A DNA stretch of 61,575 nt, filler included, from Hausera hauseri (taxonomy: Eukaryota), in assembly GCA_046269625.1 (NCBI GenBank). It is 12 parts of 12 records of this genome, joined end to end, with 100 filler letters (N's around TTAATTAATTAA, not from the genome) between each part and the next. Parts side by side here need not be neighbours in the genome. Positions count along the whole stretch, not along the records: positions 4,342 to 8,855 come from JBJURY010546231.1; 11 more parts are not named here. The stretch is one strand, 5' to 3'. The translations under genes were made by a program, and so were the position numbers. Each line of letters starts with the position of its first letter. Within the stretch, counting starts at the first letter, position 1. Of the stretch, positions 1-45,849 are shown one piece after another. Below the pieces are notes generated by a model. The model did no database searches and was not told where the DNA came from. It was given only the letters and a program-made list of their open reading frames with translations.

Positions 1-3000
1 CCAATTTCGCTTGTCATCGTTGCATGGCAAAGCAACCTTTTTATTTGTGATGGTATACAGCTGGTACTCAATCGATCGTATGGTCGTTTGAGACATAACA
101 GCCCTTCCTTCTTCGTCTTCTTCTTGTCCATCATAGACACGGCGATAATCACCGTAATTTATTTCCGCCTGTTTTAGCTGGATGCCTTTTGCCCACATTT
201 TCGGTTCACAGTCCATCAGAAGACTGTAATATTTTTGGCGCAAAAATATCCATTCCCTGTATTGAACCCGGCCTTCACTTTTGTCCTTGAAGCAACCGAT
301 TCTGTTTGTTATCGCTCTGCTCTACAGTGGATGGCCCGGTGGGTAGTTGGACGTGTCCAGTAGTCCATCTGACATCATTTTTCGAAGCAGCTGGTCTCGA
401 TTGATGTTTTTCAGCTCAAGAAAAAAGCTGTCTGTGTCACCGGCAACAATACTGGTCTCACAGCCATCGAACATTTGCTGGTAACATGCCAAGTCACGAT
501 ACTGGAGCTCGTACAATCGCAACTTGCTCAGGCTCAATACCACTTGACCGATGTAGCTTGGCCAGTCCAGTACGACTTCTTCTTTGTTTAGAAGCACGGC
601 GACCAATCCATCGGCAATGTGCATTGAGCTCCTGAACTGAGCCTTGCTGGTGTACATAGCCAGTCGTTTTTCGTTGTTGTTGCACAGGCGCACATTGAGC
701 CGCTTCTTTAAATCTTGTTTTTGAGCTTATAATAGTCCTTTTCGAACTTTGTACAAGCTGTGGCTCGTTTCGTGGAATTTTTATCAATGTACGCCTTGAA
801 TATCGGCGCCTGATTGAAGCGGTTTGCACAATTGCAGCTGTGTGACGCGTACACCGAGCTGTATGTAAAACTGCAGTAGACGCCAATGAACCACGTAATT
901 TAATTTGGGTTTATGTGCCGTGAGCAGCTTCTTTACTTTTGAGCCGCCGGGTGGATATTGGCTAATTGGTGCGACGGGCAGTTCATCCAGAAAGTCATGC
1001 AGCTCATCTGGTACCACGAGATCGACCTCCATCAGTACCCGATTGAGCTGTTTTCTGCTGTTATCATGTCTGCCACTCTCGACAGATTTTCCAGTATTTT
1101 GTCCACGTCCTGTTTCTCGACTATCCATTCGGATGAACCGTACCGTAAGGGTTGTGAAAGCGCCCAGCCGTACAGGTTATTAACATCAATGTACAACATT
1201 AACGTTTTATCATCACTGGTTACGTGATGTTTGTTGACAAATGTCATGCTGCCACAAATACCAACATCAAATAGTCGGTACATTTCGCGGTTCTTGCAAC
1301 AGCTCAATTTCCCTGTCCAGCGACATTAGTGCCTATGCCCAACTCATCCCCGGTATGAAGTAAAAGTTTAAAGGCTCCAATCTATCTTCCACCAACGCCT
1401 TAGAACGAAATGTCTGAAACACATCGGCTAACAAGTACACGTCCACTTGCAGGTACTGGAGCATGTACTCCAACATGTTTCGGCAGCCGAGCTCTGTCCA
1501 CGCTTCCTGTGCTCTGTAGTAGTCGTCCTCTGTAATTCCGGCCAACTGTGGCGGCAATTCATCTGTTGTCTCAAGCCGCTGGTACGACACAGCAAAGTAA
1601 TACAGGAATATGCCTTTGCTGCGTGCAATATGCTCGGGGAACTGCGTCAGTGTTAGCGGCACATCTGGCAAGGCATTTACGAGCTTTGCTAGAGACTCAT
1701 TGAGGAACTGCAGTGAGTCAAGAAATCGTACCTGAAACAGCTTTATGCGTTCCGATAAGGACAGGTACTTCTCCATCCTTGTTGGGATTATGGATAGCTC
1801 CCAGTGTGAAAATCCGTTGATGGCCCATTTCAGAATATGGTGACAGTCATAACCTGTGACGTTATGAAATATCACCGACAGTAATGACCGCACCCGTCTT
1901 GCCAAATTGCATTAATTGCATGCTGCTCCCAAGTGTCGAGCAGTGAAATGATCGTGATCCGGTAAAAGCCGTTCCTGTGCATCGAACGGCAATATTTTGT
2001 GGCACATGTAACATTCGTCAGTGGCAGGGAAAAGCAGTGGTTCATATTCGTCTGCCCATACCTAGGGTTTAGTGCTATTATTCCAATACCACGGCGCGAT
2101 TTCCGTTTCCACTATTGTCTCCAACTGATGCAGAAAATCGTGGACACAGTTCCATCCGTGAAAAGCGTAGTACTGTGGTTGTCCGTCGGCTTTAATTGGC
2201 ACAACCACCATGCCGAAGGCGATTGGGACATACTTTTGGTCGTAGACGTTGTGCCGTGGTAAAATTGCTTCGATATCGGCGTGTACCACATATGCCGGAC
2301 TGTCGACTTTTCACCAGTCACAGAATCCCAGTTACCTTTTGACTGGCATGACATACATTGTTGTTCCTGTTGCATTTTTCCTGCACAGCGCCAAATGCTT
2401 TTTCCATGTCGCTTCTGACCTAAAGCCATGTAGACATATGGGACCCCATTTGCAGTGTATGCGTTTTTGGATAAACTGATCATGGTCCATGTTTAGTAGT
2501 CAATCCAAATTTGTTACTTCCACATAATGAAACTTTTCTGCATTCTCGAACAGCAACAAATTTACTGGGCGTCCATTTGGGTTCCGACTGCGGTAAATTA
2601 TGTGTACATGGGGATTTTTGTATATTTCTTTATCTGTCGGCATCGCTATGATTGTGTCGTACCGGAACACATTGATTGCTAGTGTCAGATTACGCCTTTA
2701 AAAAGGTAGAAATGGATTTCAGTTTCATCGGCATCCAACATTCATCGTAGTCCAATTCTGAGAAATACTTACTGTACTGCTTTGGGCAATTTGCATAATT
2801 TCTGGACACTTTATCATATTTCAATATGGCCAAAATGCTGTAAATAAAGCAGTATTCTTCGTTAGTATTTTGTACATTCACTACTGCCAGAGACTGCTTC
2901 AAGAATGCAGGTATCGTTATGAATGAATGTCCGGACAGGTAAATCATGTCACTCGTCTTGGTCAGAATAAAGCTGAGAGTGACAATCCTTACAGTTCGCC

Positions 3001-3918
3001 ATCCGCTGCCTTTTTTCTGTATACTTGGCGATTTTCTCATTGAGTTTTACGCCAATGTCCTCAACAACGAAATCTTCTACATATGGCCTAGCTTGATGTG
3101 ACAGGTACCATTGTTTCCTGTCACCTTGCACGTTTTCGAATTCTGCAAGTGTATAATACTGCACTTTGCAGTTGTTGCGTTTGAATTTCAGCACTTCAAC
3201 GTCCAGGCGGTTTCGCACACTGGCCGGGACATGTCTCAATTGCATTGTTGTTGTCGTTGCCGCTGACATGTCCACCTTCATGTCCAGGTACGATCTCTTT
3301 AGATCGTACTTGACGGTAGTGGATGGTTTCTACTGGTCATGTTGCTGCTGCTTTAGCATACTGCTGCTGCTGCTTTGCGCGCATTCGTCAAGGCTTGTGG
3401 ATGCTTGACATTTCCTACTGGTTGTTGTTTTCGTTGTTGCGGGGATGCTTATTTTTGTTGAGTCCATGACTAGTTGCTTTTTGGACCGCTTAAACTGGTT
3501 TAAGTAGTCCTTGTGTTGACTATAGAATTGTTCATAGTTGATTTGATCATCATGAACTATAGAACAACAACAACAACAACCGGGATAAACATAGGCCCGT
3601 TTACTGTGCAGCGTTGTGGTGATGCCATAGTACTGCTCCATTTCAGTATGGCAACCATCAACTTTATGCATTCTACTAGTACAGTATTGTGGATATGTGG
3701 GGCATTGCGCAAGCATCATCTTATTGGACCGCGTAAACGGCCAGAGATGATGCTTTTTCATCTCGTAAAATTCGGCGTACGGACTCTAGCTTGAAGAATT
3801 GCACGTGAGACATAGATATGTATCCGTCCGCAAAGCACAATACTTCGCGATCTGCTGATGGCACTGCTCCAGATCTACGTGTATGCGAGATACGCAATAC
3901 ATGGGGTAATGTTTGCAT
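1..3918 (-). pseudogene. Polinton/Maverick (adintovirus-type) protein-primed DNA polymerase B, frameshifted, 3' end cut by contig edge (copy 1)
   Basis: Ordered motifs across broken ORFs: KGSGW..FITIP..VVNVQN..CFIYSILA (N-term), VHADIEA (ExoI), DHDHFT..GAAC (endonuclease VII-like insert), FHNVTGYD (ExoII), FLDSLQFL, YLQVDVYLLADVF (ExoIII), LYIDVNNLYGWALSQ (motif A), AGDTDSFF (motif C), EWIFLRQK, DDKRNW. Confidence 0.93.
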
Positions 3919-4241
3919 TTCTGAATGAGAAACAAATTAAAGTAAGCGTAAAATGCAATATGTATATTAACTTATTAATACTTTGAAATAAAATAAAACA
4001 CTTCTTCTATGGTGATGTGGGGTGGTGATGGTAGTGATCTAACGGCGACTATAAATATTTGTCACTCAATATCACAAGAGATGGAAGAGAACATAGAAAG
4101 TGAAATTCATAAATTGACCGGTGTCATTTTGACAGGACATGTGTTTGATGTTCAGTACCTATGTGAGCTGTCAGAAACGAGAATAATGAGCAGGCAAGAA
4201 TAGACTGAATTGATAATCAGATCTCTATTCGTAAAACGCAT

Positions 4242-4341
4242 NNNNNNNNNNNNNNNNNNNNNNNNNNNNNNNNNNNNNNNNNNNNTTAATTAATTAANNN
4301 NNNNNNNNNNNNNNNNNNNNNNNNNNNNNNNNNNNNNNNNN
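4242..4341. other. Artificial contig-joining spacer (44 N + TTAATTAATTAA + 44 N); identical spacers at 8856-8955, 14029-14128, 19457-19556, 24869-24968, 31983-32082, 38073-38172, 42374-42473, 47208-47307, 51303-51402, 57474-57573
   Basis: Eleven identical 100-bp blocks carrying a six-frame stop linker; sequence either side is unrelated. Confidence 0.98.
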
Positions 4342-4960
4342 GCGTTCGAAGGAGATAATCATTGGATCACGTATCAGAATGTCATTGATTGTTAGGTTTC
4401 TATAATTGGGAGTCTCTGGTTGAATATCTGGTCGTCGCATCAGTATGGAGACTGCCCCATAGGTTAGAGTTAAAGGCGCAGTTATAAGGGGAGTCTCCTC
4501 ATATGAACCATGAGCGTAGTTTACGTCAAATAGGTAAGTTCCGTTGTCGAATTTCTTATTCAGGAAGGTTTCCAATAAGAGGAATCGTTTGAATACTATT
4601 GCATGATGTAATTGGGTACTACGTAATTGTGGTTGGAAAATGGCTTGAAATACTTTGTTGTCGTAGGCATAATCGAATATTAGAATTGCAAGATTGTGTC
4701 GACCATGGCGTATAGCGAGAAGTAAGGGAATTTCTCCGTCTATATTGGGTATGTGTAAGGGTGCTTGTGATTGAATAAGCATGAGTATGAAGAAATCATG
4801 ACATTCACTCATAATGGCTAAATGGATGATGGTATTGCCATTTATATCTTGAATTTCAGCTTTCCGCTGCCTCATCGCATAAATGACAAATAGCTTCTCT
4901 AGCTCTTTCTTCGTTTCCTGATGCTACAGCTAACATTAGCGGGGTCGTTGAAGCGTTATT
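4342..4960 (-). pseudogene. Ankyrin-repeat domain (about 5 repeats), cytoplasmic part of a predicted single-pass membrane protein; runs off contig
   Basis: TTPLMLAVASG (upstream frame), DINGNTIIHLAI, NIDGEIPLLLAIRHG, STQLHHAIV, EETPLITA match the ankyrin G-x-T-P-L-H-x-A consensus. Confidence 0.85.
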
Positions 4961-5189
4961 TACTGTTGTATAGTTTATTGGGTCAGCTGGTTCATCAGTA
5001 ATTCCCAACATGTAACGTTCCGCTTTTGGTAGAATTTGTTCCTCATGGGTTTCGACATAAGGTAATATTCTTCCTTTTTAATAATTGATAACCATTTCGC
5101 ATCACCGTAGATTTCTGGGTCATATTCTATGTTAGCTAAAGGAATTTCGAATGGTCTGCTGTAATCGAGTGTTGGTTTATGTCGAGATA

Positions 5190-7811
5190 TATCCCTTCTC
5201 CCGTGTTTATGTTTATATACACATATAGCTATAATTGTTGCTATGATAAGTATGACGCCAATGGGTATTACTGTTACTATTAGGAGAACTATATTATAAT
5301 CTATTTGAAATTGCTCTACTGGTTCACTGACGTTGATATAATACTCAAAGTTTCATTATCTTTAGGAGAATTGGTAGATATTCTAAAAATAAATTTCCCT
5401 CTTTTCATTATTTCATTTAGTGTGGGAAATTTGAACAATGAATTTACTCCCTTTTTGAGTGTAGTGTCTTCCAACAACGCAACCGTTTTTGGTTTTCGTA
5501 ATGGAACATAGTATGGTAATTAAATATAAGCTAAGTAAGGATAGCCTGATATCAGTTGTGTACATTCAACATAAGTACTAGTAACTAGAAAACAAGCGTC
5601 GTTAGCATTATTTAAGGTGAGTGTAAAGTCAGGGTTGGGTAAGCTGAACATTACGCGGTCAGATCTCACTTGAAGGCAAATATCCATTGGTCTAAGTGGA
5701 ACTGCTTTGATTCGTTCTGAAATCTGTCGTACTCCTGCTATCAGGTAAGGAATTTTGTTTTGTACGGAATAGCGAAAACTACTCAACAAAAATGTGTTTG
5801 GACGAGAAGATTGTAACTGCAATGTTAGGAGTATTTGTCGAATGTCGTGTTTTGTGCATGATATCTGGGGTCGTGGGCTTGTGACCTCTAGGGTATAAAC
5901 TTCTTCGCTATAACGTTTCGTAGCGCAGGACAGAGCGTAGTATGCTCTACTAGTTTAAGGTGCTGTACTAAAATATCATTTTCGTAAAATATTTTTGCAT
6001 TAATTTGTTGATTGTCTATAACTGTGGGAGTGCATGGAATTGTTGGCGCTTTTCTTTCACTTCCTTTTACAGAACTTCTCAATATACCATTTACGAGACG
6101 AAACATGGCTAGTATTATTGAGTATTCCTGATCTGGATGTGCATATATGCAGGTTGATTGGTTGTGTTCCCTGGAGTAGTGGATGTTATTATTGATAATG
6201 GATGTATCGGCGTATCGGGTGGTTCTTTGCGTTACTCTTCCTTTTGGTATTTTTCTATCCCATTCAACTGGTAGGTACTGCTTCTTATAATTTGGTTGGC
6301 CTATGAATATTCTTTCTTGTAAGAATAATCTATCAGTATTGTTTTGTTCTTTTTGTTCCTATGAATTGTCTGTTAAGGACAGTGTAACTGTCTTCTATTC
6401 TGTGGGTATCATTGTTTCAGTCGTCCGGTTTCCGGTGAGAGGTAGATCCTTGCTTCTTGATGTATGTATTTCTACCGAACAGATAGATCCCTGGGTAATT
6501 TAACAACAGTTTTCTTTACGTGTGGAAGTAGAAGTACACACTATCTTTGATCGCCTGTAAAGCGTTAATGTTCCCATTCTTCCTTCATAAGTTTGTCATT
6601 TTCCGTTTTATTCCGCTGAGGGGAAACTTTTATAAGTAGGCACTTTCTCTTATGGTTATATTGGATGAAAAGATTTCCTGGTGCAGCTTCTTGGTTATCC
6701 CAGGATTCTGTTTTCGGTTTCTTTCTAAAAATTTCATAAAATCTAAAAATGCATCCGGTAATGTCTGATTGGACGGGCTTGTCGTTATTTTCTCAGGGCT
6801 TGGTGTTGGTTGTGTTGAAGAGTTGGGTATACAAAAAACTAATATACTTAATGGTAGAACCATCCGACGAGAATTTTCGCCAATTTTGGGCCTTGTGCCA
6901 TCATAATTGAGAGGTTTATTTGTCAATCTATTACTAAATCGGGTAGTGGTATGTTTTTTAGTGGACCGGCGTCCTCTGATGCATAGAATTAGTATGGGTG
7001 TTAAGATAATTTTGACGGCGCGAAAGGGCATCATAGTTACCAGTAGTAATGATTTGTGGTTTAGATTTGCTATTGTATTTGGTGACTTAATTTTCGTTAA
7101 TATTTCGCTTTTCCTGGTTGTTATCTGAGGTTTTGTAAGTAAAGCATGTTGTTCTTCATTTGTAGTTATGTGACATAAAACTATTGTTTTTTGTTTGAGA
7201 GACAGTTCATAAGGTTGGCCTATTATCTGTACCCAATAGAGATAGTGAGGTTTAAATTGATCGCATTTGGTGGATGTATTTTTGAGTAGAAAACAGGTGG
7301 CGGTAGCATTGTCGAATGAAACCGTATAATTTTGATCAGGCAAATTGAATATGACACGGTTGTTATTCATGTAGAATGAAATATGCAATGGATTGAATTG
7401 AATTTTTTTAATACGTTCGGGGAGTTGTACACCATCACCGGATGCGCGTAGTGGTGCATAGAAAGCGTCAAAATAGGTAACGCTAACTCGAAATGTATTG
7501 GGACAGGTGGATGGTAGATGCAAGGTCAACAATATCTGTCGATAATCACCTGGTGTACAAGTTATTGGCGGCGTTAGACTGGAGTATTTTATGTTATAGT
7601 CTTCTTCGTTTGTTAGTTTTGCCGTGCAAGTTAAGATATAAGGGGTATTTTTTATTCGAGGTGTTATTCCCATGAGTCCTGCGGAATTTTCTACATCTGC
7701 ACTTATCGACTGATTGCGTTCAGATATGGGGCGGCATGGAGTGTCAGGTAGTCTTTTCTTTGTTATATTTTCTGCTTTCGATTTTATTTTTATTGGCGTA
7801 TTGATTGTCAT
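5190..7811 (-). pseudogene. Ectodomain with an internally duplicated ~140-aa FN3-like unit plus TM helix (5215-5292), upstream of and collinear with the ankyrin domain
   Basis: Unit A (about 7165-7575): CTPGDYRQILLTLHL..ERIKKIQFNPLHI..RVIFNLPDQNYT..CFLL..KCDQFKPHYLYWVQI. Unit B (about 5465-5880): CTKHDIRQILLTLQL..ERIKAVPLRPMDI..RVMFSLPNPDFT..CFLV..ECTQLISGYPYLAYI. TM IVLLIVTVIPIGVILIIATIIAICVY is followed by KHKHGRR. The FN3 assignment is inference. Confidence 0.6.
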
Positions 7812-8687
7812 TTCTACAGTTATCGTAATAAGGATAGTTCGTCACAGGGTAATGTTGTAACTTAACCCACTTATGAGTTCTGATACTTGGAATATTAAGG
7901 AATAGGTGTATCCTTGAGAAACGCGACGGCATTTGTTTTCTTTTAATTCTGAACGTGCAACACAAATGGGTCTATACAATTCAAACAACGTTGCTGCTTC
8001 TTATTTCTGTCATACTGATTTGTTTACATATGCTATTATTAAACATTTCTTCTCAATGTTATAGTAGATGGAGAAGATTTTAATCGTGAATTGTTGGTTG
8101 TCCGTTAATACAAATCTTGTATTTTCTGGTAGTTTCGAATATTCTCGAAATATTGTGTGTGATTCTCGTTCACCAAAGGAGGTTGAAACTAGATTTAACT
8201 TCGATTGAGGTGTTGGGGTTATTTGCGACAATAAACCTGTCATATACGTCGTTAATATACATCGGGGTTTACACTTACAGAAGGTTGTACCCACAATAAC
8301 TGTGAGAATATTGAGAGTGACCGTAATTATCAATAGAGCTGCCTCATGGCTTATTGGAGTCTACTTTTTAGTCCTCATTGATAGGATATTTCTTGACCAC
8401 ACTGAATCTATTTGAATCTTTGAGTAGTTCAGTTGTATAAAGGAATGCCTACTGTGATTAATTGTCAATTGTCTTATAGTTCCTGGGGATTTTGCTGTTG
8501 ATTGTGCTAATACGTTTATCATACATAGTTCCAATATAAATGAAAATAGTACTGCTTGACTGAATTTGGGTTTATGACTTTGGTGGTTTGTTGAGATGAT
8601 TTCGGTACTTCGCTGATTATCAAGTTCATCGGGAGTTTTATGTGTAACTAGTAGGGTGAAACTGCCGATTCTGCAACAGACCCCCAT

Positions 8688-8812
8688 CCCGGGAAATTGC
8701 GCAACTTCCGGTGTCAATTTGCGTCACTTCCGGTAAAATTTGCCCAATGTTACGCAATTTTCACCGGAAGTTGTGCAATTACCGGGCAGGAAATGATGCA
8801 AAAGTTGCGCAA
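8688..8812. promoter_or_regulatory. GC-rich inverted repeat with clustered ACTTCCGG (ETS-like) and TTGCGCAA (C/EBP-like) motifs
   Basis: 8688-8713 CCCGGGAAATTGCGCAACTTCCGGTG pairs with 8762-8786 CACCGGAAGTTGTGCAATTACCGGG; three ACTTCCGG/CCGGAAGT and two perfect TTGCGCAA within 125 bp. Confidence 0.5.
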
Positions 8813-10189
8813 CAGCGGTGTCCTCGTGTGTTCGGCTTTGAAAAATTGCGAAAATNNNNNNNNNNNNNNNNNNNNNNNNNNNNNNNNNNNNNNNNNNNNT
8901 TAATTAATTAANNNNNNNNNNNNNNNNNNNNNNNNNNNNNNNNNNNNNNNNNNNNCGTATTTTCATTACCATTCATGTCGAAAAAATATATGCTCCGAAA
9001 TGTGTCGTCCGCTGTTCCGTTTAATTACAAATTACTCGTCTGTTAAAAATGAGCAAGTGCATCGATAAAGTAATAAAACTTTTAATAGAATCACACAATT
9101 CAGAGTAGACAATACAAGTTTAGGAAATTCACAAAACCACAAGAATGTTAATTAGATATTCTTTAAAGTAAAAAATACAATATCAGAAAATAACTAAGAA
9201 CGAGAAGATTATGTGCTTTTGTTTCACGGGAAAATGACAGCCGTTTATGTGAAGTACATGCACAAATCAATAAACTTAACGCCATACGACTGGTTTCCAG
9301 ATCCATACGGTTAAATTCACACAAGTTACATTCGTTCTAATTAAGTTTATTTTAAATAAGTTTCGTAGTAAAGGAACAAACGTCAATAAATATTATGAAC
9401 GTAAAATGTCACATGAATTAAATCTCCAACATGTCGGATAAATACCAAACGGCAGTCAAACAATGAATAATATCAATGGTGAGTGTCAAAGCCTCAAGTG
9501 AATTGCCGGCCTACACACCCCATCTGTATTAGTTGGTAAACAAATCTTGTTCAGTCAACAGCAACTCCGGTCATGAACTGTGTACCAGCAACCTACGAAA
9601 CAAATTAACTGGAACCATGAACTGTCCTTATCGCGTTTCATTCTGTTATCATTCATCATTTGCAGGCATGAGTACGCATATTTACACAAGGCGGAACGGT
9701 ACAAAGAAATCATTAACTTGATATCAAAATATACGGCCAGTACTCTTTGTCTGACACTGCGATGGTAACAGACAAACAACTCATGGGCACTATTATCGAT
9801 GTAGAAATTTCAAATAATGATGTAAATTGTTTGGCACGTGCTGGGCAATGTTAAGAAATGCAAATGATGAGATAACATCAATCTATATTCAAGACAACAT
9901 GATATATTGATTTGTAAATAAATCAATAATTATTACTTAGTATTTGAATTATTTAACAGTTAAATAAGATATTCAGTTTTATTTTTCCTGAAAACTTTCA
10001 TAGAATAAAACTAACGATTAATTAATGACGCAGTCGTTGTAGCATGAAATGAGGGTTTTACGATTATGGATTATATTCTAATAATTACTTTCAAAGGAGT
10101 GAAATATTACTGTTTATCATGGTTATTTATGGCAAATAATCAGAGACGTACGCAATTCAATGTTGAATGATAATATGAAAGAATATTTT

Positions 10190-13233: not shown

Positions 13234-14028
13234 TCATATAGAGTAATATCCGTAAGCTATACTTCGGTTTTTATCAACCCAGTGACGTTTGTCGTCGAAG
13301 GGATCTAGTGCTTTCTTTTCTGAGCTGATTGTTATGAGCTGGTGGTTTTTAGTACCAATTCGATCCTTGTCTACCATAGTGCTACAACCAGTTTCATAAG
13401 CATGTAGGTAGTTACTAAACTGCAAGTCTCTCTGCTTGAGATTGATACATTTGCATTTGAGGACTGGTTTAGTTAGGGTTTTGAGGGCATAAGATTTCTG
13501 CCGTAGGAAAACCGCCTCTTCATACTGAACACAGCCCTTGCTCTCATCATTAAATTTGCCAATTACAGAAGCAAAACAAGTAGTGTACAGCGGATCAGTC
13601 TTATCATAGTTTGATGTATCTAACTGTTCATTTGCTATCATTGCTGGTAAAAGTTGGGATTTTAAGTCCACACCACGGCATTCAATGAAGAAATTGTTAG
13701 TGTCACCAGCAACAATATTTAACTAACAATTAAACTGATGCTTGTATGTCTCCAACTCGATATAATTCAGCTCATACATCCGTAACTTAGGCAGACCAAG
13801 TGTGGCCTGACCGATGTATGAGGGCCTATCTAAGATGACTATGTCTGTATCGAGGAGAACTGCAACTAGATCATCGGCTATTATAATGCTCTCTTTAAAC
13901 TGGGCCTTAATAGCATATGTAACTAGTTTTTTAGGATTATTACACAGTCTAATGTTTGATCTATTTAGAAAATTCTCTACTGTTTTGCCATATAAGCTAT
14001 TGTTCTTAAGCTTAAAGAAGTCTTTTTC
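13234..14028 (-). pseudogene. Polinton pPolB C-terminal third (more divergent third lineage)
   Basis: KDFFKLKNNSLYGKTVEN (motif B), AGDTNNFF (decayed motif C), DTSNY, IGKFNDE, FLRQKSY, DDKRHW..IAYGY; one in-frame stop. Confidence 0.92.
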
Positions 14029-15910: not shown

Positions 15911-16478
15911 TGTGGTGCCCACAGCGGTCGGTGCCCTTTGGCCCATTTGGTCGGGTACGGCCGGGCGTCCGTTGCCGCCACGTCAGGCCCATAGTCAGGC
16001 CCGATCTCCCACCTCATGAATCTATTTATAAAACACCTCTACCACTTTATAATACTGGAAATAGAAGTATATGACGATGATCACGGCACCGATATTGTAC
16101 CGGAAACAGAATCTGACTGTGATGATTCCATAACGAGTAGCATATGTGTGACAGATTACAATAACGATGTTTCCAACATTACCGGTTCAATGACAACAGT
16201 CAAACGACATCAAACCAGTTTACATCACATCCAGCAAACAGTTGGCAGGGCGATAATTTCGCTACTTTTTCTGTTAGTTATGATCCGAATAATTCATCAC
16301 AAAATCTGCGACCTGCCACGCGAATATTTTCTAACCCTCAGTCAGTTCAGTCGTCACAGCCGAATATGACGAGTTCCAGGTCAAATATTTGTCGAGATTT
16401 GTTGACGCATTCAAGCACTGTACAACGTCTCATATCGACTACTGCTATATTCGCATTACCAGTATCAACAACACCAAA
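15911..16478 (+). mobile_element. Probable Gypsy solo LTR separating the penton from the TBK1 fragment
   Basis: Starts TGTGGTGCC (same 9-mer as the LTR start at 44225) exactly where penton homology stops; ends CACCAAA (6/7 inverse match) exactly where kinase homology starts. Confidence 0.45.
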
Positions 16479-17700
16479 CACGTGGAAGATTCGCAAACAT
16501 TTCACACCCTATTCGGAACAGAAGAGTATCTGCATCCTGATATGTATATACAATATTTTGAGGGTATACCAAAAAATCACTGCCAATATGGATCTGTGGT
16601 CCATCGGAGTGACTCTGTACCATGCGGCAGTTGACCAACTACCATTCCTTCCCTTTAACTATTCCAGATCATCTGATAGATCAAAAGAATTCTTTGAAAT
16701 ATATGTATATAGTTAAAAAGCCTGGAGTTACTTGTGGTCGACAAATGTCTGATACTAAAAGTGATATACAATGAAGTACACAATTACCCGATTGTAAACT
16801 ATCACCAATGCTTAAAGAAATGACATCGTTGCTTCTTGGAAAGCACATGGAATACCTTAGCGCATATAATACATACGACAAATTTTTTGAAGAATCCAAC
16901 AAAATTTTGCAGAAAAAACATTGTTTGATGTTTAGTAGTCTTGACGGTCAATTACAAATGATGTATCTTGACTGTGTAACATTCAGCAATATTACCAATT
17001 AAGTTTCATGTCTAATTGGTTTAAACCGAGAAGATTTTATAATTCTCACAAGGAACAAACGCTTGGAACCTTTGGCTGACATTCACGCTGAGTGTATTAG
17101 ATCATATCCTGTGAAAGGTCTTTTGAAACATAAGCTAACGGATGATTCGATAATTGTCGTTCCGTGTAAACAGGTTGAACAGACGAAACCATTATTTATT
17201 CAACAAGCCAATAACAACTCTGAAGTACCGCCAACTTCCTTCCGAAATTTCAAAGTATCCAAAAAACATACTGAAGACGTAATGAAAGCCATTTACCAAG
17301 TGACAGGTGCTGCAGGTTACATCAATTGATAGATTGAGTGTCACAGAGAAACAGTAGTTTTTTTAATGAAAACGTCAAGATTGGATCACTTAAGACAATG
17401 AATACTTTGTTGACCTTTCAGATGAAAGACATCAAGGACTGCTGTCTTATGACAGATGCTTTAGTGAAAATAGCAAATCCTGCTCTGTGCAATTCTTATT
17501 GTAATCAAAACAGTCAAGAAAGTCTTTCAAAGTGTATGGACGAATTTGAACAACTGAGAAATGAGGCTAATAAAGGCGAAAAATATGGGGAACAATATTT
17601 TTGCAAAATTGTTGAAAGGCACGAAAATCGAGATTCGAAAATTGAAAATTCTGGAGATAAAAACTATTACCGAGTTAGCGAAGAATACATTGCTCCATGA
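16479..17700 (+). pseudogene. TBK1: TBK1/IKK-epsilon family kinase fragment (activation loop through ubiquitin-like and helical regions), intron-free, broken
   Basis: [16 protein letters not shown] and [19 protein letters not shown] are diagnostic of TBK1/IKKe ([33 protein letters not shown]); N-lobe and DFG absent. Confidence 0.85.
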
Positions 17701-24968: not shown

Positions 24969-26043
24969 ATACGATGTAACAACAAAAGAGGCGAAAAACT
25001 GCGATTTTGAACCCGGAGACTATACACAGTGTTGCGACATATACTATGGACACATTTACATCCTTACTTATCGACTATACTCACCACACTCATCGGAAGT
25101 CTATATCGAAGTAAACCCACAACTTCAGTTAGTTATTCCCGCTTGGATCACACGATTCGAAGTGAAATTCGACGAAATACTACAATCTACCGACCCACAT
25201 ATAAGGCTATTAGTTGAAAATATCAAATGGATCTCAATAAACTAGAAAAAACAATGCATCCAAGTAGATGCTCGAACATGATTAACTCTTAGTCAAAAAA
25301 TTAGCGTTGTTTTCGAAACAGTAAATGGAAAAACCCCGAAAGTAAAATACTGTTCTGTTCGTGATGGTGTAAAACACCTATGTTGTAAGCTACCAAATAA
25401 ACCAAGACTTCAAAATAAAATTTGACTTACATGAAGTACGACCGAATAAACCGAGCAAACAATTGCGAGCTTATTACCCAAAGAATAGAATATGGAGGAT
25501 TCCAATAGAAACGACAACCGAAAATCCGACTACTCGAGTTGGTGTCATTACGAAAACCGTTACATCAGGCAGTGTGCCTAAAAGGGAGTTCTAAAGTGTT
25601 CCCATTAAATATTCGACGCACCGATTTAGAATTATGTTCTTTGTGAAAGAAAAACTAATCAAATTGTAACATTACTTAAAAATACATACCAGACAGAATG
25701 CAATTTGTTAAAATCACAATCCGATTATATAATACAAGTATATGCAGAGGATAAAGAAAACCAAACGAGTACATTGCTCACATTAGATGAAGTTTGTACA
25801 GAATCGCACATATACAAAAGCATAGATAACAAAATTACAACTCCAGTCACCAAACAAGCACCAATGGGATTAACCACTTTACCGATCGTATCAATAGTCG
25901 TACTATAAACGCTTGTTCTCATCATATTAATTGCGATTTTTCGGTTAGTTACCAGAAATTATTATTCTAAGCGTCTTAAAACTACAGAATGGAAACTAAC
26001 GGAATTGGAAACCCCTCTTGATCTATATGATAAAATAACCTGA
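24969..26043 (+). pseudogene. Type I membrane protein with juxtamembrane FN3-like domain, T-rich stalk, TM helix and short tail
   Basis: TECNLLKSQSDYIIQVYAE (FN3-like L.P.T.Y.V.V.A), then LPIVSIVVL*TLVLIILIAIFRLV + RNYYSKRLK; stop at 26041-26043 followed by AATAAA at 26073. Confidence 0.55.
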
Positions 26044-26736
26044 CAACTACAGAGCAGATTATTCTATCATCAAATAAAGAATTGGTTCTATTTCAAGAGC
26101 ATTCTTTATTGTAAGAGTAATCTTTATTGTTTATTCTTCAGGTTTAAAAACAACTATATGGACGGACGACAGTATCGACGAACCGAGTAGGGAAAACGTT
26201 TCAAGACGCCGACGTACTATCGACGAATTCCTACAAAAATACACCGCCATACTTCTCCGAAATTCTAACTCCATTTTCCGGGAGATCCATAATGAATTAC
26301 ATGGAAAAGGTGCTGTAAAATACGACCAGGTCTACACAATTCCCAATAATCTAAAGGGTGTCACAGAAGAGAATAGGACTATCTATCTCTGTGCCATGAG
26401 GGAAGACAAGGACGCCAGGGCATACTCGCTCAGACAGTTGATAGACTATGATTTCGGTCGAAACATTTACATTTACCTAGCCGATGGTGAGATATACTAC
26501 CGATTCCTAGATCAAGAATGGGACATACATAACGGAAGGCAGTATAGATGTAGCATCCTCAGTTTACGAAGTGAAGATCTGCAGTCTTACGAATTGAAAT
26601 TTCGGGTAGTCGCTCTTCGTGTCAAGATAATGCTCGAAGTAACCTATGAGGAACAGTCCCATTTTCCATTACCGCCTTGAAGTTCCGGCAACAATCATCG
26701 GAGAACGAACTGGAAGGATCCATATACACGTATAGA

Positions 26737-27260
26737 ATGATGCCAAACACCCAGAATGTGAGGATCATAGCCATAAATTCTGGAGAGGGAAAGGACGCGG
26801 AGAAAATTCCGATGGAGATCTCAGTTCGAGAAACCAGTTGAGTAGAGACGTATCATACAATTATTAGTCCTAGGAAACGGATTAGAGAAACATACTACGA
26901 TTTAACTGGAATCCGTAAGGAAAACCTCCGAAGCGGAAAGAATATAAAACGTGTGCAAGTAGAATTGGAACATTGCCTATATGGACACATTCTTGTTGGG
27001 CATAGTATAGAGGAGACTATAACATTATAGGAAATACCCCACTCAAACCTCGCAGGGATAAGAGAACTCAGAACGCACCCAATTATCGCCGAACAAACAA
27101 AAAAATTGCTGCGAGAAAGGGACTACCCGATGCCAAAACTTATGGACGCCTACTTCAAACTAGTAATTGACACTATGAGTAATGGCTGCATCAAAGTCAG
27201 TAAGATGATAACGGCGAGCTAACGCACTTAATACCTTCGAGACATTTACGCAGGTTTAAA
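26737..27260 (+). pseudogene. ISG20/REX4-like DEDDh 3'-5' exonuclease domain (not in ORF track), C-terminal to an unknown domain starting about 26158
   Basis: IIAINSGE..EISV..YHTIISPRKRIRETYYDLTGIRKENL..KRVQVELEHCLYGHILVGHSIE..L*EIPH..IREL follows the REX4 pattern AIDCE..V.P..V.DY..SGI..L..VQ.E..GRILVGH.L; ExoI and ExoII Asp appear substituted. Confidence 0.75.
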
Positions 27261-28126
27261 ATGGGACCACGAATGGACTCCTAATAACCCGGAACACAAC
27301 CTACGTAGTCTTCCAAACCCAGAAGGAGTAGATCGCAAATATCGGAAACAATACTGTTTGGCTTATTGAGCCAAATAACTCCGAATTAACTATATTGAAG
27401 ACCATTCAGAAGCCAATCACAGATGGATTACCAGACACCAGCTGTAGAAGGGCTGAAACAATGGCCAAATAAGAAACCGGAACTGAAACATTCAAAATTT
27501 CCTTGATTCCAAAGAAAAAGCAAAAAGTTAAAATCCTGGCCCAAGTGTCGAAGAAGAAAACCTCCCTTTATGACTATCTATTCAAAGGGACCTACAAAGC
27601 AACAATCTCAGTTCAAATAGACCAAAACAAAAAATGGATAATGCAGAAAACTATGAAAGAAGGAAGAAGATCAACCAAAAATAGCCAATCAACTTACAAT
27701 CCGAACTATAGAAAAATCAAGGAATGCAATATTCTGAGCCCAGAACCCAGAGGATGAACTCAAGCAAATTACTGAAATGAATATATTAAGGAATAGGCAT
27801 ACACAGGGAGATACACATTTCATAACGACTAAAGACCAACCGAAAATGTTGGTAACCACTGAACATTCTAGCCGCGAAAAAATCAAGGAGGCAGTGTTTT
27901 ACCTTAGAACCACATCGCCTAGAGAAGTGTACGAAAACACATACATCTGGGAGAATCCCAAACTACGGAAATATGTTGCGCCAGTTTTCCAATATAAAAG
28001 AAATGGTAAGATGACAGTACCCGTGGACAAACAGATAAAAACAGTACTAAAAAAGCAATGCCATCAATATCTAAAACAAGGAAAAATTCCTGATCTGGAT
28101 CACGAAAGTTTGCAGACTGGACCATA

Positions 28127-28444
28127 GTGACAATAAGTTGTGACCCCAGAAGAATCTCCGTAGACCCCAAGCAAAAGAGGATTTATGAATATTTGTACCA
28201 GGATAAGGATGATTTGGTATTCGAGCAAATCGAGCTCGTAATAAGAGGAGATCTAGACGACGAGAAATGGGAGAAGGAAGAATATGAATGTCCCATGTGT
28301 GAGGCAGACCTTCATCAAGGATTCGTCATTGTAGATAATTGCGATTGCAGACACAAATACTGTCGAGACTGTTTGGAAAAGTGGACCGTAGAAAACGGCA
28401 AAAACTACAGACCCAGTATGTTAGGTAGAGGCAACCGACCTTAA
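28127..28444 (+). pseudogene. C3HC4 RING finger protein, end of a broken ORF starting about 27500
   Basis: CPMC-x13-CDCRHKYCRDCLEKW, with a final PVC in a shifted frame near 28413-28421. Confidence 0.75.
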
Positions 28445-29153: not shown

Positions 29154-29344
29154 TAGATAAGGCGAGAATATTGTTAAACGTTTTGCACAGGACCACAATC
29201 GAGTACCAGTATTACTGATTAAACTATCTGTTATAAGGTAAAATTTGTCTATTCGATAACGATAGACCTTACATGCATTAAGTTACTCAAATCCCAAGTG
29301 TAATTATTGTTATATAGCGGGAGATTGCATAAGGGTAACCCCAA

Positions 29345-29645
29345 TATGTAACATTTCTTTTGGTGCTCCGGATTTGAGGATCCATTTCTTTTCTATCGCT
29401 GCTTTGATGGTGACTTTGTCTTGCCTCGGTATAGTAGTTAGTGTTACGTATCTGCTATACTGATCTATCATTGCTAAAATATATCCTTTTTTCTCCAAGC
29501 TTCCTTCATTGGCCCACAGATATCTATGTATACTTTTCGAATGGCTCGTTTGCTGATAGGTTCACTGTTTCTTCCTTCGTGCTCGTCGTCAAGGTTTTGC
29601 TTCGCTGACAAGCTTCGCATTGTCGAACTACTTCCTGGACTGTGT
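29345..29645 (-). pseudogene. Gypsy integrase fragment
   Basis: VVRQCEACQRSK..EPFEKVYIDICGP..YILAMIDQYSRY..WILKSGAPKEM. Confidence 0.85.
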
Positions 29646-30284: not shown

Positions 30285-31290
30285 ACAGAATGACAACCAT
30301 ACAGCTGAACGGTTTACCACGGACTTGAACTAACCACTCGAACTACGCACGGGAACCTTGGAAGTGACTCTGACGGACTTCACATTTACATTTTCACCAA
30401 AATCAATACGTGAGAAAATCGGTATTTATTTACCCGACTAGAAAATACCCTGTTTCAATCCGTTTAAAGTTAATCCGAGACTCAAACAAATATATTATCC
30501 GAAATTATTTGCAATACAATTTCTCGGTTTATGCTTATTTTCCAAACTGCAGTATGAAACTAAAGCATCGCATCCCATGGAATTGCAGTTTAAAACCATG
30601 GATGATGCTCAGGCATGGGGTATTCAATCAGTCAATGTACGCTCGAAAGTCTACGCCTAGGTGAACATGTTATAATTAGTGAAAAATTGAACCTATCGTT
30701 TAATGTGACAACCACTGTTGTAGTGAACTGGATTAGGTCAGATCAGTCTTTCGATTGTACATTGTGCCATATGACTTATTTATGGAAAGGGAACCGGAAT
30801 TGTGCGAATACGTCAAGAAAACGGCTACATTAGCCGTAAAGACATGCGAAATAAACGCAGATGGTCATATTTCGATTATACTACATAACAATGTTACATA
30901 TTTTGCCTTTGATGAATTATTGGCTCAGAATCTGGGGTTTAAGAAACGAGAATTCTATCAAACCATTGTTGGACAATCTATTGTTTCCAAATACAAATCA
31001 CCACTCTGGAGAATTTCATAGAATCAATATTTTAACGGACTTAACCGAATCCGTACTCGTGGTTGGATAACGTAAACAACTACTGGCTTCTATCGAACTG
31101 CATTCTGGCAAGTACAAAACATCGGGTGAAACTGTTCGCGTTAATATGCTCATACCCATGCACTTATAATTTTCTCGCATTATTGTACAGTATTTCCGTG
31201 TATATGCTTGATGAATTTTGGGAGCCAATTAAATTTCTATTTGGGTCAACGACACATTTGACGTTACATTTTTGACGTCGTCGTCGATAA
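30285..31290 (+). pseudogene. Polinton minor capsid-like gene, homolog of 14999-15910
   Basis: DNA collinear with 15060-15910 (WEVTLTDFTFTFSP; YFAFDE.L..NLGFKK.EF; INILTDLTE..RKQLLASI); retains the C-terminus MLDEFWEPIKF..THLTLHF. Confidence 0.75.
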
Positions 31291-31335
31291 TAAACAAACT
31301 GCTTCATCACTATCATCATCATCATCATCGAGATC

Positions 31336-31982
31336 ATGAGTATTTACATGATGTTACTGAGCAACAGTTGTCCGACAACTCGTCTAAACAATTCAGCCAG
31401 TGAATATGTTGTAGATTGGAACAATCCTTTGGATTTATCTGGAAAATGGGAAGTTGCACTAACGGAATGTAACTTCCCCTACGTACCGGGGATATTGAAA
31501 GGTAGTATGAAAATAGTGTACAACAAGACTGTTACTGAAACCAAAACATATTCTTATCCTCTGACACTTACTGACAATAAAATAACATTTGGATAATCGG
31601 CCATTTGCACGACCAGTACAAATTACGGTTTATACGGCAAGATCGGTGTTTTTATTTTAGGGGGAAACTTACATTTTATAGCAGATTTTGAATTTACTGT
31701 TAACTTTGCGTCATCTGAGATGGCGCAAAAATTTAGAATCAAAAATGCAGAGTACAAAGGTAAATATATTAGAAGCGAATATGCAGTTGCTCCAAGATTA
31801 AGTCTCGTATATTACTAGACAACGGTGAAATTTACCTATACAGCATAAATGGTGTCAACGTCATACGTATCGATTGGGGACAATGTCTATTGCGAGTCTG
31901 TAGCATATCTCTGTTAACACTTCTTCAAATCAAAAGTACAAGGAGATATTTAAAGTTTTCGAGTCATCAAACCGATTTTGAT
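31336..31982 (+). pseudogene. Second, tandem minor capsid-like gene
   Basis: MSIYMMLLSNSCPTTRLNNSASEYVVDWNNPLDLSGKWEVALTECNFP, the penton N-terminal motif (SN..N..S.F..P..L.G.WEVAL.E). Confidence 0.8.
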
Positions 31983-32082
31983 NNNNNNNNNNNNNNNNNN
32001 NNNNNNNNNNNNNNNNNNNNNNNNNNTTAATTAATTAANNNNNNNNNNNNNNNNNNNNNNNNNNNNNNNNNNNNNNNNNNNN

Positions 32083-32545
32083 GCTACAACGTGAAATAAC
32101 AACTTTTTCAACTTGATCTCCATTAATAGATTTTAAATAGCGGATATTAACCTTTTCGAATGGTTGCAGGACTATAATACAGTAACATCTCTCATTGATA
32201 CTTGCCACTCTCCACGAAGATCAATATTATTCTCAGTCTACGATATATTTGCTAGCATTATTATTCGGTGAGTATCTGGACAACTATTGCTTGGTAACAC
32301 CATATAAAATGAATGCATGATTGCCATCACATTACCTGGACTGTTTATATTCTGTATTGCTTAATAAGTAGAGTCAATATAGTCTGCTCCAAATCTAGAT
32401 TCTGGGTTTTCCACTATCATCACCAATATTAACTCCTGTTTTGCTTATGCATGTTGATGAAACAGGCAAATCCATTGGATTTATCGGTGCAACATATATT
32501 GGATCACCATAATTTAATTGTGAACCATCTACACAAACATCTTAA
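32083..32545 (-). pseudogene. Junction of two tandem minor capsid-like genes (C-terminus of one, N-terminus of the next); not in ORF track
   Basis: VAPINPMDLPVSSTCISKTGVNIGDDSGKP (C-terminal motif), then PNNNASKYIVD*E..IDLRGEWQVSMRD (N-terminal motif). Confidence 0.6.
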
Positions 32546-33303
32546 CAGAGGAACTCGATCTGATCCGACCATTATTGGCTGAACTATTCTCGAATAGATT
32601 TAAATTTGATTAAATGCATTTGTCAATCTAATTGGAAAGACACCTTTGTGGTGCCGCTGACTCGGGCGCCACCAGTCCAACAACCCCGAATAACTGCGTA
32701 CATCCAACAAACGGAATGCTGAATGTGAAATCTCATTTTTGTTAAAGAAAATCGAAATCAGTTATATTCCACGCTTGATAAATACTACCAGTTCACAGAA
32801 ATATGTTGATGCTAAAAAAGGTATCAGAAGTCAGTCAGCGAAACCTGCAAATTTTGTTCAGGTAACGATGATGGTGTTTTGGCTGACAAAACGCGATTTG
32901 ACCGATATCACCGACACAGTTACACGAAGGAATAATAATGTTCTGTTTGAGTACACAATTATGTCCGATGAGTATAGTGGTAATGATGAACTAATTCGGC
33001 AAATATTAGTTAATTGACTTTCTATGAGGATATTTTTGGAGATATTGTGTGTATTAATGTTGTAGATTTCTATGGTTTGTAGTTATCAATAATTAATTGA
33101 TCGGTTTGTTTAAAAAAGGGAATTAAAGCTTTCCTGTTTTTTTGCTACTTGGATTAAACCATATCTGTGTAACAGTCATTTAATCTCGTTTAATCACGAT
33201 TTAATGCCAAATTCGTGTTGGATTTATCTCGTCTATATCAATTGGTGTCAGAAGTGGGATTTTGAAATCATATCCACTGAACAAGAAATAAAGGTTCAAA
33301 AAT

Positions 33304-34400
33304 GTGCTAGATGGAAAAGAAGATGACCCGAATAGTTTTATATTGACAACCCAATTAACACCGTTATATGACTTCTATTATGGTCGAATTGAAGGTTGTT
33401 ACATGACCCAACAAAACAAAGGCGAATATCGATTTAGTTTTGCCGTATGTCAAACGATTTGCTACTCTAATGTGTCGACAATTGAACACATTTTACAGCA
33501 CACCGACGATAAAGCCACGAAAATGTTCAAAATCTGCGACATCATCCAGTATCAAACGTGCGGCAAAATGTTGGATAAGGCATTCGAATTGCGCAATCAC
33601 ATGGAAGCTGAACATATGTCCGTTATGGGTCCCGATGGGGAACAGCGTGTGTGTATCGACATAAACAACGGCAATATGATCTGTACGATTTCATGTCGAA
33701 TTTGTGAGAAAGTGTGACAGTAATTTTTCGCTGGCGCAGCATTTGCAGAATTCTCATCGAGTACATGAAATTCCGTACCGTTGTGTAGTATGCAATTTCC
33801 ACACGTCACTTTACCAGAATGTCATGGGATATTTCAAAAAATCCATAATGACACGAACGAACTAATTTGTCCGTATTGTTTACGGCTCTATACGATCATC
33901 GATCCTCTACCAATGAAGGTTCTCGATGCACCGGGTTCCATCTCGAATGCCAGTCAGACCGTATTGTTTCTCCAGCATTTGAAGACTCGCAAAGAACTCG
34001 TGTTCAAACATTGTACCGGCTGTATATTGCAATTTATCAGTAAAACGGATTTTGAACTCCATCGAAAATTAGATCATAAAACTCAGGTCATTGAACATGA
34101 CTCCTATCCAGGATTTAAGTCGTCGTCACATGTTTCCCATTTGGGTTCGAGAAATGATGGTCAGGATGAGCCTTTGGTAAATGCTGGTCCACAAGCTAAA
34201 CGAATGAATGCACCGGAACCGGCTCGAGTACAAGATCTATTTAATCTTGTATTGCCGGAAGAAATTAAATATTTTGTGTTTAGAGTGCGGTAAACAGTTG
34301 AGCAGTAAAAATTTAGACCAAGTTCGCATAATGCGTGAACGAATTCGTAGTTGTATGCCAATTTTTATCGTAAATAACCTTGTTATTCACGGCTACATAA
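33304..34400 (+). pseudogene. POGZ/ZNF280 (Row-like) C2H2 zinc-finger cluster fragment
   Basis: DFYYG, CGKMLDKAFELRNHMEAEH, CRICEK, FQKIHNDTNELICPYCLRLY correspond to POGZ [43 protein letters not shown]. Confidence 0.75.
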
Positions 34401-42321: not shown

Positions 42322-42473
42322 TTCTGAATGATAAACAAATTAAAGTAAATGTTAAACTAGAAACAAATGAAAANNNNNNNNNNNNNNNNNNNNNNNNNNN
42401 NNNNNNNNNNNNNNNNNTTAATTAATTAANNNNNNNNNNNNNNNNNNNNNNNNNNNNNNNNNNNNNNNNNNNN

Positions 42474-45790: not shown

Positions 45791-45849
45791 TACAAAATAT
45801 GGCACTTTACTACGATACTCATCTTTACCATTTTATTTACAGTCGAATC

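Follow-up and report, generated by a model that had tools for sequence, protein, structure and literature searches.

A broken repeat copy of Hausera hauseri with tandem membrane-protein units and a predicted IkB-like ankyrin tail

The contig at positions 4342 to 8855 is one broken member of a repeat that exists in many diverged copies. The explanation preferred here, with a confidence slightly short of even, is that the repeat carried a tandem run of membrane proteins (units A and B, probably with a third) and that the ankyrin tail of unit B is a predicted membrane-tethered IkB-like inhibitor acting for a mobile element. The ankyrin domain would bind a host NF-kB/Rel dimer (a predicted binding) and keep the dimer at the membrane. 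Lacking both a PEST tail and a degradation signal ahead of the repeats, the inhibitor would be expected to persist through immune signalling, by analogy with polydnavirus vankyrins. More tentatively, the repeat may be an invertebrate virus-like element with an orphan surface-glycoprotein array, one member of which would be a receptor-shaped, anchored IkB mimic coupling its ectodomain to NF-kB capture. These functions would have belonged to the ankyrin-tailed membrane protein; the focal copy itself is dead.

The focal contig and its copies

The window, that is the whole stretch of 61,575 nucleotides that was analysed (assembly GCA_046269625.1), consists of 12 unrelated contigs and spacers. The focal contig (JBJURY010546231.1, 4514 bases) is bounded by assembly spacers at 4242-4341 and 8856-8955, and no relatives of it were found among the other contigs of the window. 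Its flanks, which the earlier note had proposed to examine for LTR or Polinton genes, belong to unrelated contigs and so say nothing about the focal gene. That note had also placed a single gene across 4342..8333; the first of these positions is a mere contig end, and the codon at the second is TTG, not ATG. The AT skew of the focal contig was the strongest among the 12 contigs.

For the proposed copy count, contigs matching the focal contig at an identity of at least 80% numbered 9353 in run X1 and 516 in run X2. The X1 contigs fell into classes of 492 at 99% or above, 1716 at 95-99%, 3638 at 90-95% and 3507 under 90%, most of them lying at 80-95%, and 99 departed from the focal sequence at a single place. 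Individual long contigs matching the focal contig had a depth of 4-8. Depth on the focal contig is summed contig depth and no measure of copy number.

The coding path on the minus strand, described earlier and recovered here, contained 9 stops over its 1448 codons where composition predicts 93, a contrast that is overstated since the path was picked by homology and openness. In other copies, length differences were located at each of the six frame switches used for unit B or no more than a few bases away, and an intact relative, P0001, reads through the switch near 4860; the focal copy is thus decayed. Features are collected in Table 1.

Table 1. Features of the focal contig, with positions counted along the window
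Feature	Position	Strand	Remarks
Focal contig	4342..8855	.	One decayed repeat copy; limits formed by spacers, not element ends
Palindromic repeat	8689..8855	.	31-nt arms, 84% complementary
Upstream open frame	8361..8688 (ORF about 8690-8346)	-	Same frame as unit A
Hydrophobic stretch, earlier read as N-terminus	8285..8342	-	More likely a TM anchor belonging to a third paralogue upstream
Unit A ectodomain	7050..8280	-	About 410 codons, three in-frame stops
Unit A TM helix	6977..7049	-	Hydropathy 1.93, basic stretch; homologous to unit B TM
Unit A short basic tail and junction to unit B	6864..6976	-	Open in-frame; length varies among copies
Unit B ATG and hydrophobic stretch	6831..6863	-	Likely signal peptide; ATG at 6863
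Unit B ectodomain	5287..6830	-	About 510 codons; Cys, N-glycosylation sequons; five in-frame stops
Unit B TM helix	5217..5286	-	Hydropathy 3.07 over 19 residues
Unit B cytoplasmic linker	4958..5216	-	About 85 codons; basic stop-transfer stretch first
Ankyrin domain, six repeats	4342..4957	-	Frame switch near 4860; contig ends about 12 residues before stop

Tandem membrane-protein units

Two homologous Cys-containing units of about 140 residues had been reported. Their homology was confirmed (38% identity over 162 aa, E 6e-30), but the duplicated stretch is larger and is a whole membrane-protein unit of about 430-550 codons including its own TM helix. Five collinear blocks match 8153 to 6977 of unit A with 6750 to 5217 of unit B, the ectodomain of the latter being followed through frame switches near 6717, 6572, 5965 and 5325. 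The score of the TM helix of A against that of B was reached by 0 of 2000 shuffles. The single TM helix and basic stop-transfer described earlier are present in unit B, and the linker of about 80 residues follows as stated; a second helix lies between the units.

The start of unit A was aligned with that of unit B at about 8275-8280 (DNA alignment; 3 of 1000 codon shuffles), and near the unit A start, around 8267, depth climbs from 100 to 806. Across 6831..6863, at the start of unit B, summed depth climbs from 44 to 231-471, and no difference fell at 6861-6863 among the 40 of 49 difference rows listed. Only about 110 bases separate the TM helix of A from the start of B; one frame is open through this junction, the other two hit stops at 6960 and 6925, and other copies show length differences, joints and loose ends there. 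A synonymous-change test on the first 50 codons of unit B used the 40 listed differences out of 49; it scored the ATG frame at 4 of 17 and another frame at 7 of 17 and did not separate the two.

Because the duplicated unit holds its own TM helix and start, A and B are expected to have given two membrane-protein products. We lean slightly toward two separate genes; otherwise cleavage of one precursor at an internal signal peptide would have yielded the same pair of products. Each unit would have made a type I surface glycoprotein, A with a short tail and B with the ankyrin tail.

Upstream of unit A, the hydrophobic stretch at 8285..8342 had been taken as an N-terminus starting at the TTG codon. 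It resembles the TM helix of unit B (score reached by 24 of 2000 protein shuffles and 4 of 1000 DNA shuffles) and is unlike the start of that unit (1594 of 2000 shuffles); by this likeness it is probably the TM anchor of a third paralogue. The open frame farther upstream is possibly a remnant of that paralogue, its homology with A or B not being significant (scores reached by 121 of 2000 and 249 of 2000 shuffles). The palindrome beyond it (folding z -4.8) has a depth of 8544 vs 110 beside it, and 37 contigs diverge from the focal sequence at 8693; it is probably a separate, more abundant repeat or an element end. Rfam matches at 8692-8782 were far under their gathering scores and were set aside as reflecting the hairpin.

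The ectodomain

The ectodomain found no relatives in any of 1192 candidate proteins of 472-2000 aa, among 1.84 billion representatives, or in viral contigs and metagenomes, and it had no family match in Pfam and NCBIfam. By sequence it appears to be an orphan family with at least two paralogues. The FN3-like character claimed for it was not borne out: none of 10 pieces matched FN3 in Pfam at E<=1, and the proposed AlphaFold modelling returned strands only, with a pLDDT of 31. Atlas feature matches to haemagglutinin and two fusion families reached 0.81 (recognition 1097), below the bar of the tool.

Probable linkage of the ankyrin domain to the membrane

The relative P0001 is a protein of 236 aa, 79% identical, which spans both pieces of the broken ankyrin domain (AlphaFold pLDDT 38). 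It is encoded on a contig of 1695 bases and stops about 30 residues past the start of repeat 6, hence has no PEST tail. In the search for relatives of the ankyrin part 1 of 36 candidates matched, and further searches gave none; no relative combining TM helix and ankyrin domain was found among 2030 candidates of 591-2000 aa, a range that full-length Notch exceeds.

The TM frame and the ankyrin frame of unit B meet at a switch near 5060 in the linker, where 26 X1 contigs vary in length, and neither frame is interrupted by a stop within their overlap at 5077-4978. These observations argue for fusion of the helix to the ankyrin tail in one protein, which is considered quite probable, and against a free, soluble vankyrin-like ORF placed after envelope-like glycoprotein genes, with the fusion a product of reading across two adjacent genes. 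The latter reading, judged improbable, draws on the called start of P0001, which falls after the linker beside a Met codon of the focal sequence, but a gene caller's start on so short a contig is no mark of the true start. It also draws on the faint resemblance to viral glycoproteins that Atlas gave for the ectodomain, and on the ankyrin part being far commoner than the TM part, some contigs skipping the linker or TM helix altogether. Summed depth over the ankyrin part was about 8-25 times that over the TM helix and linker, and the length difference at 5060 made up only 25% of local depth. Since P0001 as called also starts past the linker, an unattached ankyrin protein may be the product of many copies. 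The membrane-fused form is retained as the preferred reading of unit B.

IkB and Notch likeness

The ankyrin identity of the tail was upheld (Pfam Ank_4, E 3e-8), with six repeats, visible in the intact P0001, in place of the five or so counted previously. Their motif spacing is 38, 34, 38, 41 and 33, repeats 1, 3 and 4 being long. IkB-alpha is described in the text available of PMC4477481 as having six repeats, of which 1, 3 and 4 are longer than 33 residues and the sixth is divergent. The same arrangement of repeat number and long repeats is present in the focal domain; the chance of three long repeats among five intervals landing on 1, 3 and 4 is 1 in 10. In an Atlas structure search with the predicted structure of P0001 (model pLDDT 0.81) the top three TM scores were those of Bcl-3 (0.81), NF-kB p110 (0.80) and IkB-alpha (0.78), and the remaining 7 of 10 rows scored 0.71-0.77. 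The margin of the IkB family over generic ankyrins is small (0.78-0.81 vs up to 0.77) and rests on the same insertion pattern, and Atlas gives one row per family set, so that Notch could be hidden. The number and lengths of the repeats, taken with the predicted fold, suggest the IkB family.

Sequence comparison leans weakly, and not specifically, to Notch1. No IkB-family chain was present at E<=0.001 in the best 60 of 66 PDB matches or in any of the 57 profile matches, unlike Notch1, which reached E 1e-7; Notch ranked 19 of 66, 7 of 66 and, with the profile, 2 of 57. This bears on the possibility of a Notch-derived decoy, in which unit B would combine Notch ankyrin repeats 2-7 with an ectodomain of foreign origin and disturb CSL/Mastermind signalling once freed from the membrane. 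Such a decoy, held to be as improbable as the free ankyrin protein, would account for Notch1 chains standing at ranks 2, 4, 5, 6, 8 and 10 of 57 with a three-row profile, for the gap-free fall of repeats 2-3 on Notch1 repeats 3-4, including the 34-residue repeat, and for the match by eye of 9 of 21 residues between the start of repeat 5 and Notch1 repeat 6. The Notch-like repeat motifs reported earlier were to that extent recovered. As a single stretch, however, Notch1 (18.6 bits) was outscored by MIB1 (22.7 bits, with a shorter query), a spider toxin ankyrin array (21.9) and NompC (19.4), and the C-terminal half of the domain had no Notch match at E<=10 (0 of 23 matches in one search, no matches in another). 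With a repeat pattern and a predicted fold that lean to IkB, descent of the ankyrin domain from Notch is not demonstrated.

The linker and the remaining domains were also searched. WxP is the motif of the Notch RAM region, and DSGxxS is the type of the IkB N-terminal regulatory-serine motif; both were absent from the linker pieces. In none of the 10 pieces did EGF or LNR give a Pfam match at E<=1, in keeping with the earlier note, to which neither these repeats nor a WxP motif were visible. The decoy is further opposed by a count of six repeats, three of them long, rather than seven, and by the want of RAM, EGF, LNR and PEST. The TM-linker-ankyrin order is that of Notch as described in PMC8229355 and speaks for the decoy. 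Of the Notch-style receptor first proposed, a single-pass protein with a cytoplasmic ankyrin domain is supported; a single receptor with one TM helix and a duplicated FN3-like ectodomain is not.

The carrier

Carriage by a mobile element, as suggested earlier, is in keeping with the many copies found, but the contig holds no element hallmark: no gag, pol, transposase, polymerase, capsid, LTR or terminal repeat was tied to its 4514 bases. Polinton-type and Gypsy-type pieces abound in the genome, and the carrier is likely a virus-like element, either a Polinton or an LTR retroelement that carries additional genes. On other contigs of the window, Gypsy or Polinton pieces adjoin intronless host-type genes in a decayed state, namely Rpn2 (Pfam E 1e-43), Not1, a histone, a RabGAP-TBC fragment and a kinase-like stretch. 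As these pseudogenes are also intronless, the lack of introns in the focal contig is weak evidence for viral origin.

The same neighbours, and the missing hallmark, favour passive cargo. Units A and B would then be surface-receptor genes of a host animal poor in introns, which a transposon captured and amplified or which form a large tandem family with many pseudogenes, and the ankyrin tail would be a host signalling or adaptor domain useless to the carrier. This is rather unlikely, if less so than either the decoy or the free ankyrin protein. The absence of ectodomain relatives from 1.84 billion representatives would be unusual for a conserved host receptor, and the very short A/B junction and the AT skew also count against it. 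A virus-like carrier with an IkB-like inhibitor remains the preferred reading.

Comparison with known systems

Viral IkB mimics known so far have been described as plain ankyrin proteins. If the preferred reading is true, a mimic anchored in the membrane and preceded by a large ectodomain would represent another route to silencing NF-kB and a possible switch responding to an outside signal, and a many-copy transposon or endogenous virus would have borne immune-suppressing cargo. No such membrane-anchored IkB-like architecture was found in a literature search that had subscription journals mostly outside its scope.

Unit B alone shares with Notch/LIN-12 a single pass, a basic stop-transfer, a linker and cytoplasmic ankyrin repeats, with weak collinear similarity across two to three repeats. 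In Notch, the order of TM helix, linker and ankyrin repeats includes RAM, and seven ankyrin repeats are followed by an NLS and PEST, as far as described in PMC8229355. The focal protein differs in its lack of EGF, LNR, RAM and PEST, in an unrelated ectodomain, in six repeats with insertions vs seven and in its many copies within a repeat; the focal contig as a whole has two or three such TM helices.

With IkB-alpha, Bcl-3 and p105/p110 it shares six repeats, long repeats 1, 3 and 4, a divergent sixth and the best three Atlas scores, but it is membrane-anchored, has a much longer repeat 4 and has no PDB match to this family at E<=0.001 among the matches listed.

Polydnavirus vankyrins and the ASFV IkB-like protein, in the portion of PMC5603617 available, are without regulatory serines and PEST and keep NF-kB cytoplasmic. 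The linker without a DSGxxS-type motif and the end of the protein without a tail past repeat 6 are features of such mimics, giving a predicted IkB-type ankyrin domain that has neither PEST nor an evident signal-response motif, and the mimics reside on virus-like mobile DNA, as the focal domain probably does. Here the domain is likely preceded by a 500-residue ectodomain and a TM helix, and neither of these mimics was among the sequence matches obtained.

The giant Burro LTR retrotransposons of planarians, according to the available text of PMC6431247, carry ankyrin and env-like cargo in thousands of copies, as the focal repeat may. Their motifs lie inside one gag-pol polyprotein, whereas here the cargo is a run of tandem membrane proteins.

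Repeat character and coding content

The window is discontinuous (12 contigs, 4–7 kb each, with N spacers between them), and the finding occupies one contig, 4342–8855. This contig represents one degraded copy of a repeat that is abundant, and carries two tandem units on its minus strand, a membrane-protein unit (A) and a paralogue that probably bears an ankyrin tail (B). The repeat was present in two public runs, X1 and X2, with 9353 matching contigs in X1 (7145 of them below 95% identity) and 516 in X2. Since the window could itself derive from X1, that run is not independent support. Summed depth of the matching contigs, which by the tool's own caveat is not a copy number, was ~31,000–35,000 across the ankyrin end (4342–4643) and mostly 66–806 over unit A, with single long contigs at 4–8. 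Ninety-nine contigs deviated from the window at just one place, so at least about a hundred variants exist at the ankyrin end. Differences from the window in X1 were transitions at 835 of 1141 places. The reading of unit B changes frame at six places, and in every case other copies varied in length there or a few bases away (12–69% of local depth). The palindromic repeat at the contig end, whose palindrome lies at 8689–8786, was far commoner in X1 than the adjoining DNA; this is the behaviour of a distinct repeat of higher abundance, which might be a MITE or an element end.

Eight minus-strand pieces, picked by homology and openness, held 9 stops over 1448 codons, where 93 were expected, and the coding signal is genuine. 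What had been observed earlier was confirmed in part: the ankyrin repeats were matched by Pfam and the two Cys-containing units are homologous (38% identity across 162 residues), while the codon at 8333, taken for a Met start, is TTG.

Features of the focal contig and of other contigs in the window
Feature	Position (unit A for blocks)	Unit B equivalent	Strand	Remark
Collinear block	8153–8033	6750–6630	-	
Collinear block	7991–7880	6565–6457	-	
Collinear block	7760–7643	6231–6120	-	
Collinear block	7661–7160	5960–5459	-	
Collinear block, transmembrane helices	7049–6977	5286–5217	-	
Palindromic repeat	8689–8855		.	15–19 base unit; folding z -4.8
Kinase-like, intronless, decayed	16165–17300		+	
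Second decayed run of intronless frames	24969–28441		+	
Zinc-finger-like frames (decayed) and Not1 piece	33292–36044		+	Not1, Pfam E 5e-9
Rpn2, intronless, decayed, and PAQR-like stretch	44745–46400		+	Pfam E 1e-43
RabGAP-TBC piece, isolated, apparently decayed	48996–49637		-	Pfam E 2e-15
Histone piece, isolated, apparently decayed	60861–61157		-	Pfam E 0.002

Duplication of the membrane protein

The duplicated stretch is the entire membrane protein. The collinear blocks were scored with 60 shuffles each (z 3.0 to 19.9); because many windows were tried, the weak blocks count through their order alone. The score between the two transmembrane helices was reached by 0 of 2000 shuffles. Whether A and B are one gene or two, the sequence does not bear out the earlier picture of one receptor having two ectodomain units and a lone transmembrane helix; the earlier interpretation as a whole is supported in part. 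DNA at the start of unit B aligned with 8270–8050 (3/1000 shuffles); the corresponding start of A would then fall at ~8275–8280. The hydrophobic stretch 8342–8285 resembled the transmembrane helix of B (24/2000 shuffles; DNA, 4/1000) and showed no likeness to the start of B (score reached by 1594/2000), and on this moderate evidence it more likely anchored a third paralogue; the frame upstream of it had no significant homology.

Units A and B are somewhat more likely two genes than one. In this copy the tail of A continues in frame to ATG 6863, while each of the remaining frames meets a stop, at 6960 and at 6925; with this base composition, 37 codons would stay open by chance in ~9% of cases. 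In 120 contigs from other copies, depth drops from 231–471 to 44 just upstream of ATG 6863, and the junction differs in length. Relative to the window, offsets that were not multiples of three occurred in three contigs by their indel rows, in one joint, in one long contig, and in eight contigs by their majority loose end; offsets that were multiples of three occurred in four contigs by their majority loose end and in one contig of 178 bases. Synonymous changes favoured no frame clearly (4/17 for the ATG frame, 7/17 for another), which counts against placing the start of B at ATG 6863. Should A and B be made as a single precursor, two membrane proteins would result all the same, through an internal signal peptide.

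Ankyrin tail and ectodomain

The ankyrin domain is quite probably fused to the transmembrane helix in this lineage. The transmembrane frame is open as far as 4978, the ankyrin frame is open from 5077 on, and 26 contigs vary in length at 5060, where the frame switch has to lie; all this favours fusion. This reading is tempered by the share of those contigs (25% of local depth), by the ankyrin part being far commoner than the transmembrane part in other copies, and by P0001, an intact relative of the domain, which as called begins past the linker.

P0001 was the one relative among 36 candidates (236 aa, 79% identity, on a 1695-base contig); it crosses the break near 4860 and extends ~12 residues past the contig end. 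Its six repeat motifs are spaced 38, 34, 38, 41 and 33. IkB-alpha is described as having six repeats, of which 1, 3 and 4 exceed 33 and the sixth is divergent (PMC4477481), and Notch as having seven plus RAM and PEST (PMC8229355). The Atlas model (pLDDT 0.81) had Bcl-3 (0.81), NF-kB p110 (0.80) and IkB-alpha (0.78) as top TM scores among 10 rows, the remainder being 0.71–0.77. Geometry thus favours IkB. Sequence leans to Notch, weakly and unspecifically: Notch1 ranked 19/66, 7/66 and 2/57, with no IkB chain among the matches listed. Repeats 2–3 matched Notch1 repeats 3–4 gap-free (18.6 bits), but higher scores came from individual segments of NompC and of a toxin ankyrin array in the same search, and from one of MIB1 with a shorter query, and no Notch chain matched the C-terminal half. 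The domain is assigned to neither family.

By sequence the ectodomain is an orphan, with no relatives in the searches run and no Pfam or NCBIfam match. An Atlas feature search gave viral glycoproteins at 0.81, under the tool's bar, and this kinship is a lead only. The FN3-like fold proposed earlier was neither supported nor excluded (no Pfam family; AlphaFold pLDDT 31).

Neighbouring contigs

None of the other 11 contigs was related in sequence to the focal one. They carry pieces of Polinton-type polB and integrase and of Gypsy-type RT, RNase H and integrase, as well as decayed host-type genes (Rpn2, TBC domain, Not1, histone). The source is taken to be an animal and probably an invertebrate. 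A polB-bearing element occurs in two copies, 1–3953 and 38472–42356 (75% identity across 3993 bases), with additional polB pieces at 13234–14028 and 50385–50765. Close behind Rpn2 lies a stretch resembling a PAQR/adiponectin-receptor gene; the pair is flanked by a Gypsy integrase on one side and a reverse transcriptase on the other, and an LTR element may have captured genes here. The kinase-like stretch resembles TBK1/IKK in its motifs and had no Pfam match in the one frame examined; its contig also bears a Polinton-type integrase and an M13 peptidase piece. Gag/protease-like frames lie downstream of the zinc-finger-like/Not1 stretch. The second decayed run holds a possible ectodomain with a transmembrane-like stretch (~25870–25960), an unknown frame of 200 aa, and also a RING finger (Pfam E 7e-5); an antisense integrase piece (29313–29561) and frames resembling a Polinton minor capsid follow. 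It has no sequence relation to the focal contig, yet its cargo is of similar kind.

Carrier and comparison with known systems

No carrier-identifying feature was found on the focal contig. Its coding strand has an excess of A and C; for C this excess is nearer that of the two Gypsy contigs (GC skew 0.14–0.20) than of the polB contigs (<0.04). Depth also climbs toward the 3' end, and each of these two features hints weakly at a retroelement. Introns are likewise missing from host-type pseudogenes in the window, so intron absence is no proof of viral origin.

The units would be surface glycoproteins carried as cargo, and the ankyrin tail might, by analogy with vankyrins, bind NF-kB/Rel and retain it at the membrane. 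Vankyrins are described as without regulatory serines and PEST (PMC5603617). The likeness to IkB-alpha lies in six repeats with 1, 3 and 4 long, as in P0001. Among the papers listed in literature searches, none showed an IkB-like protein that is both membrane-anchored and carried by a transposon. Burro, as described in PMC6431247, is a known element with ankyrin and env-like cargo and offers a precedent for an element bearing both.
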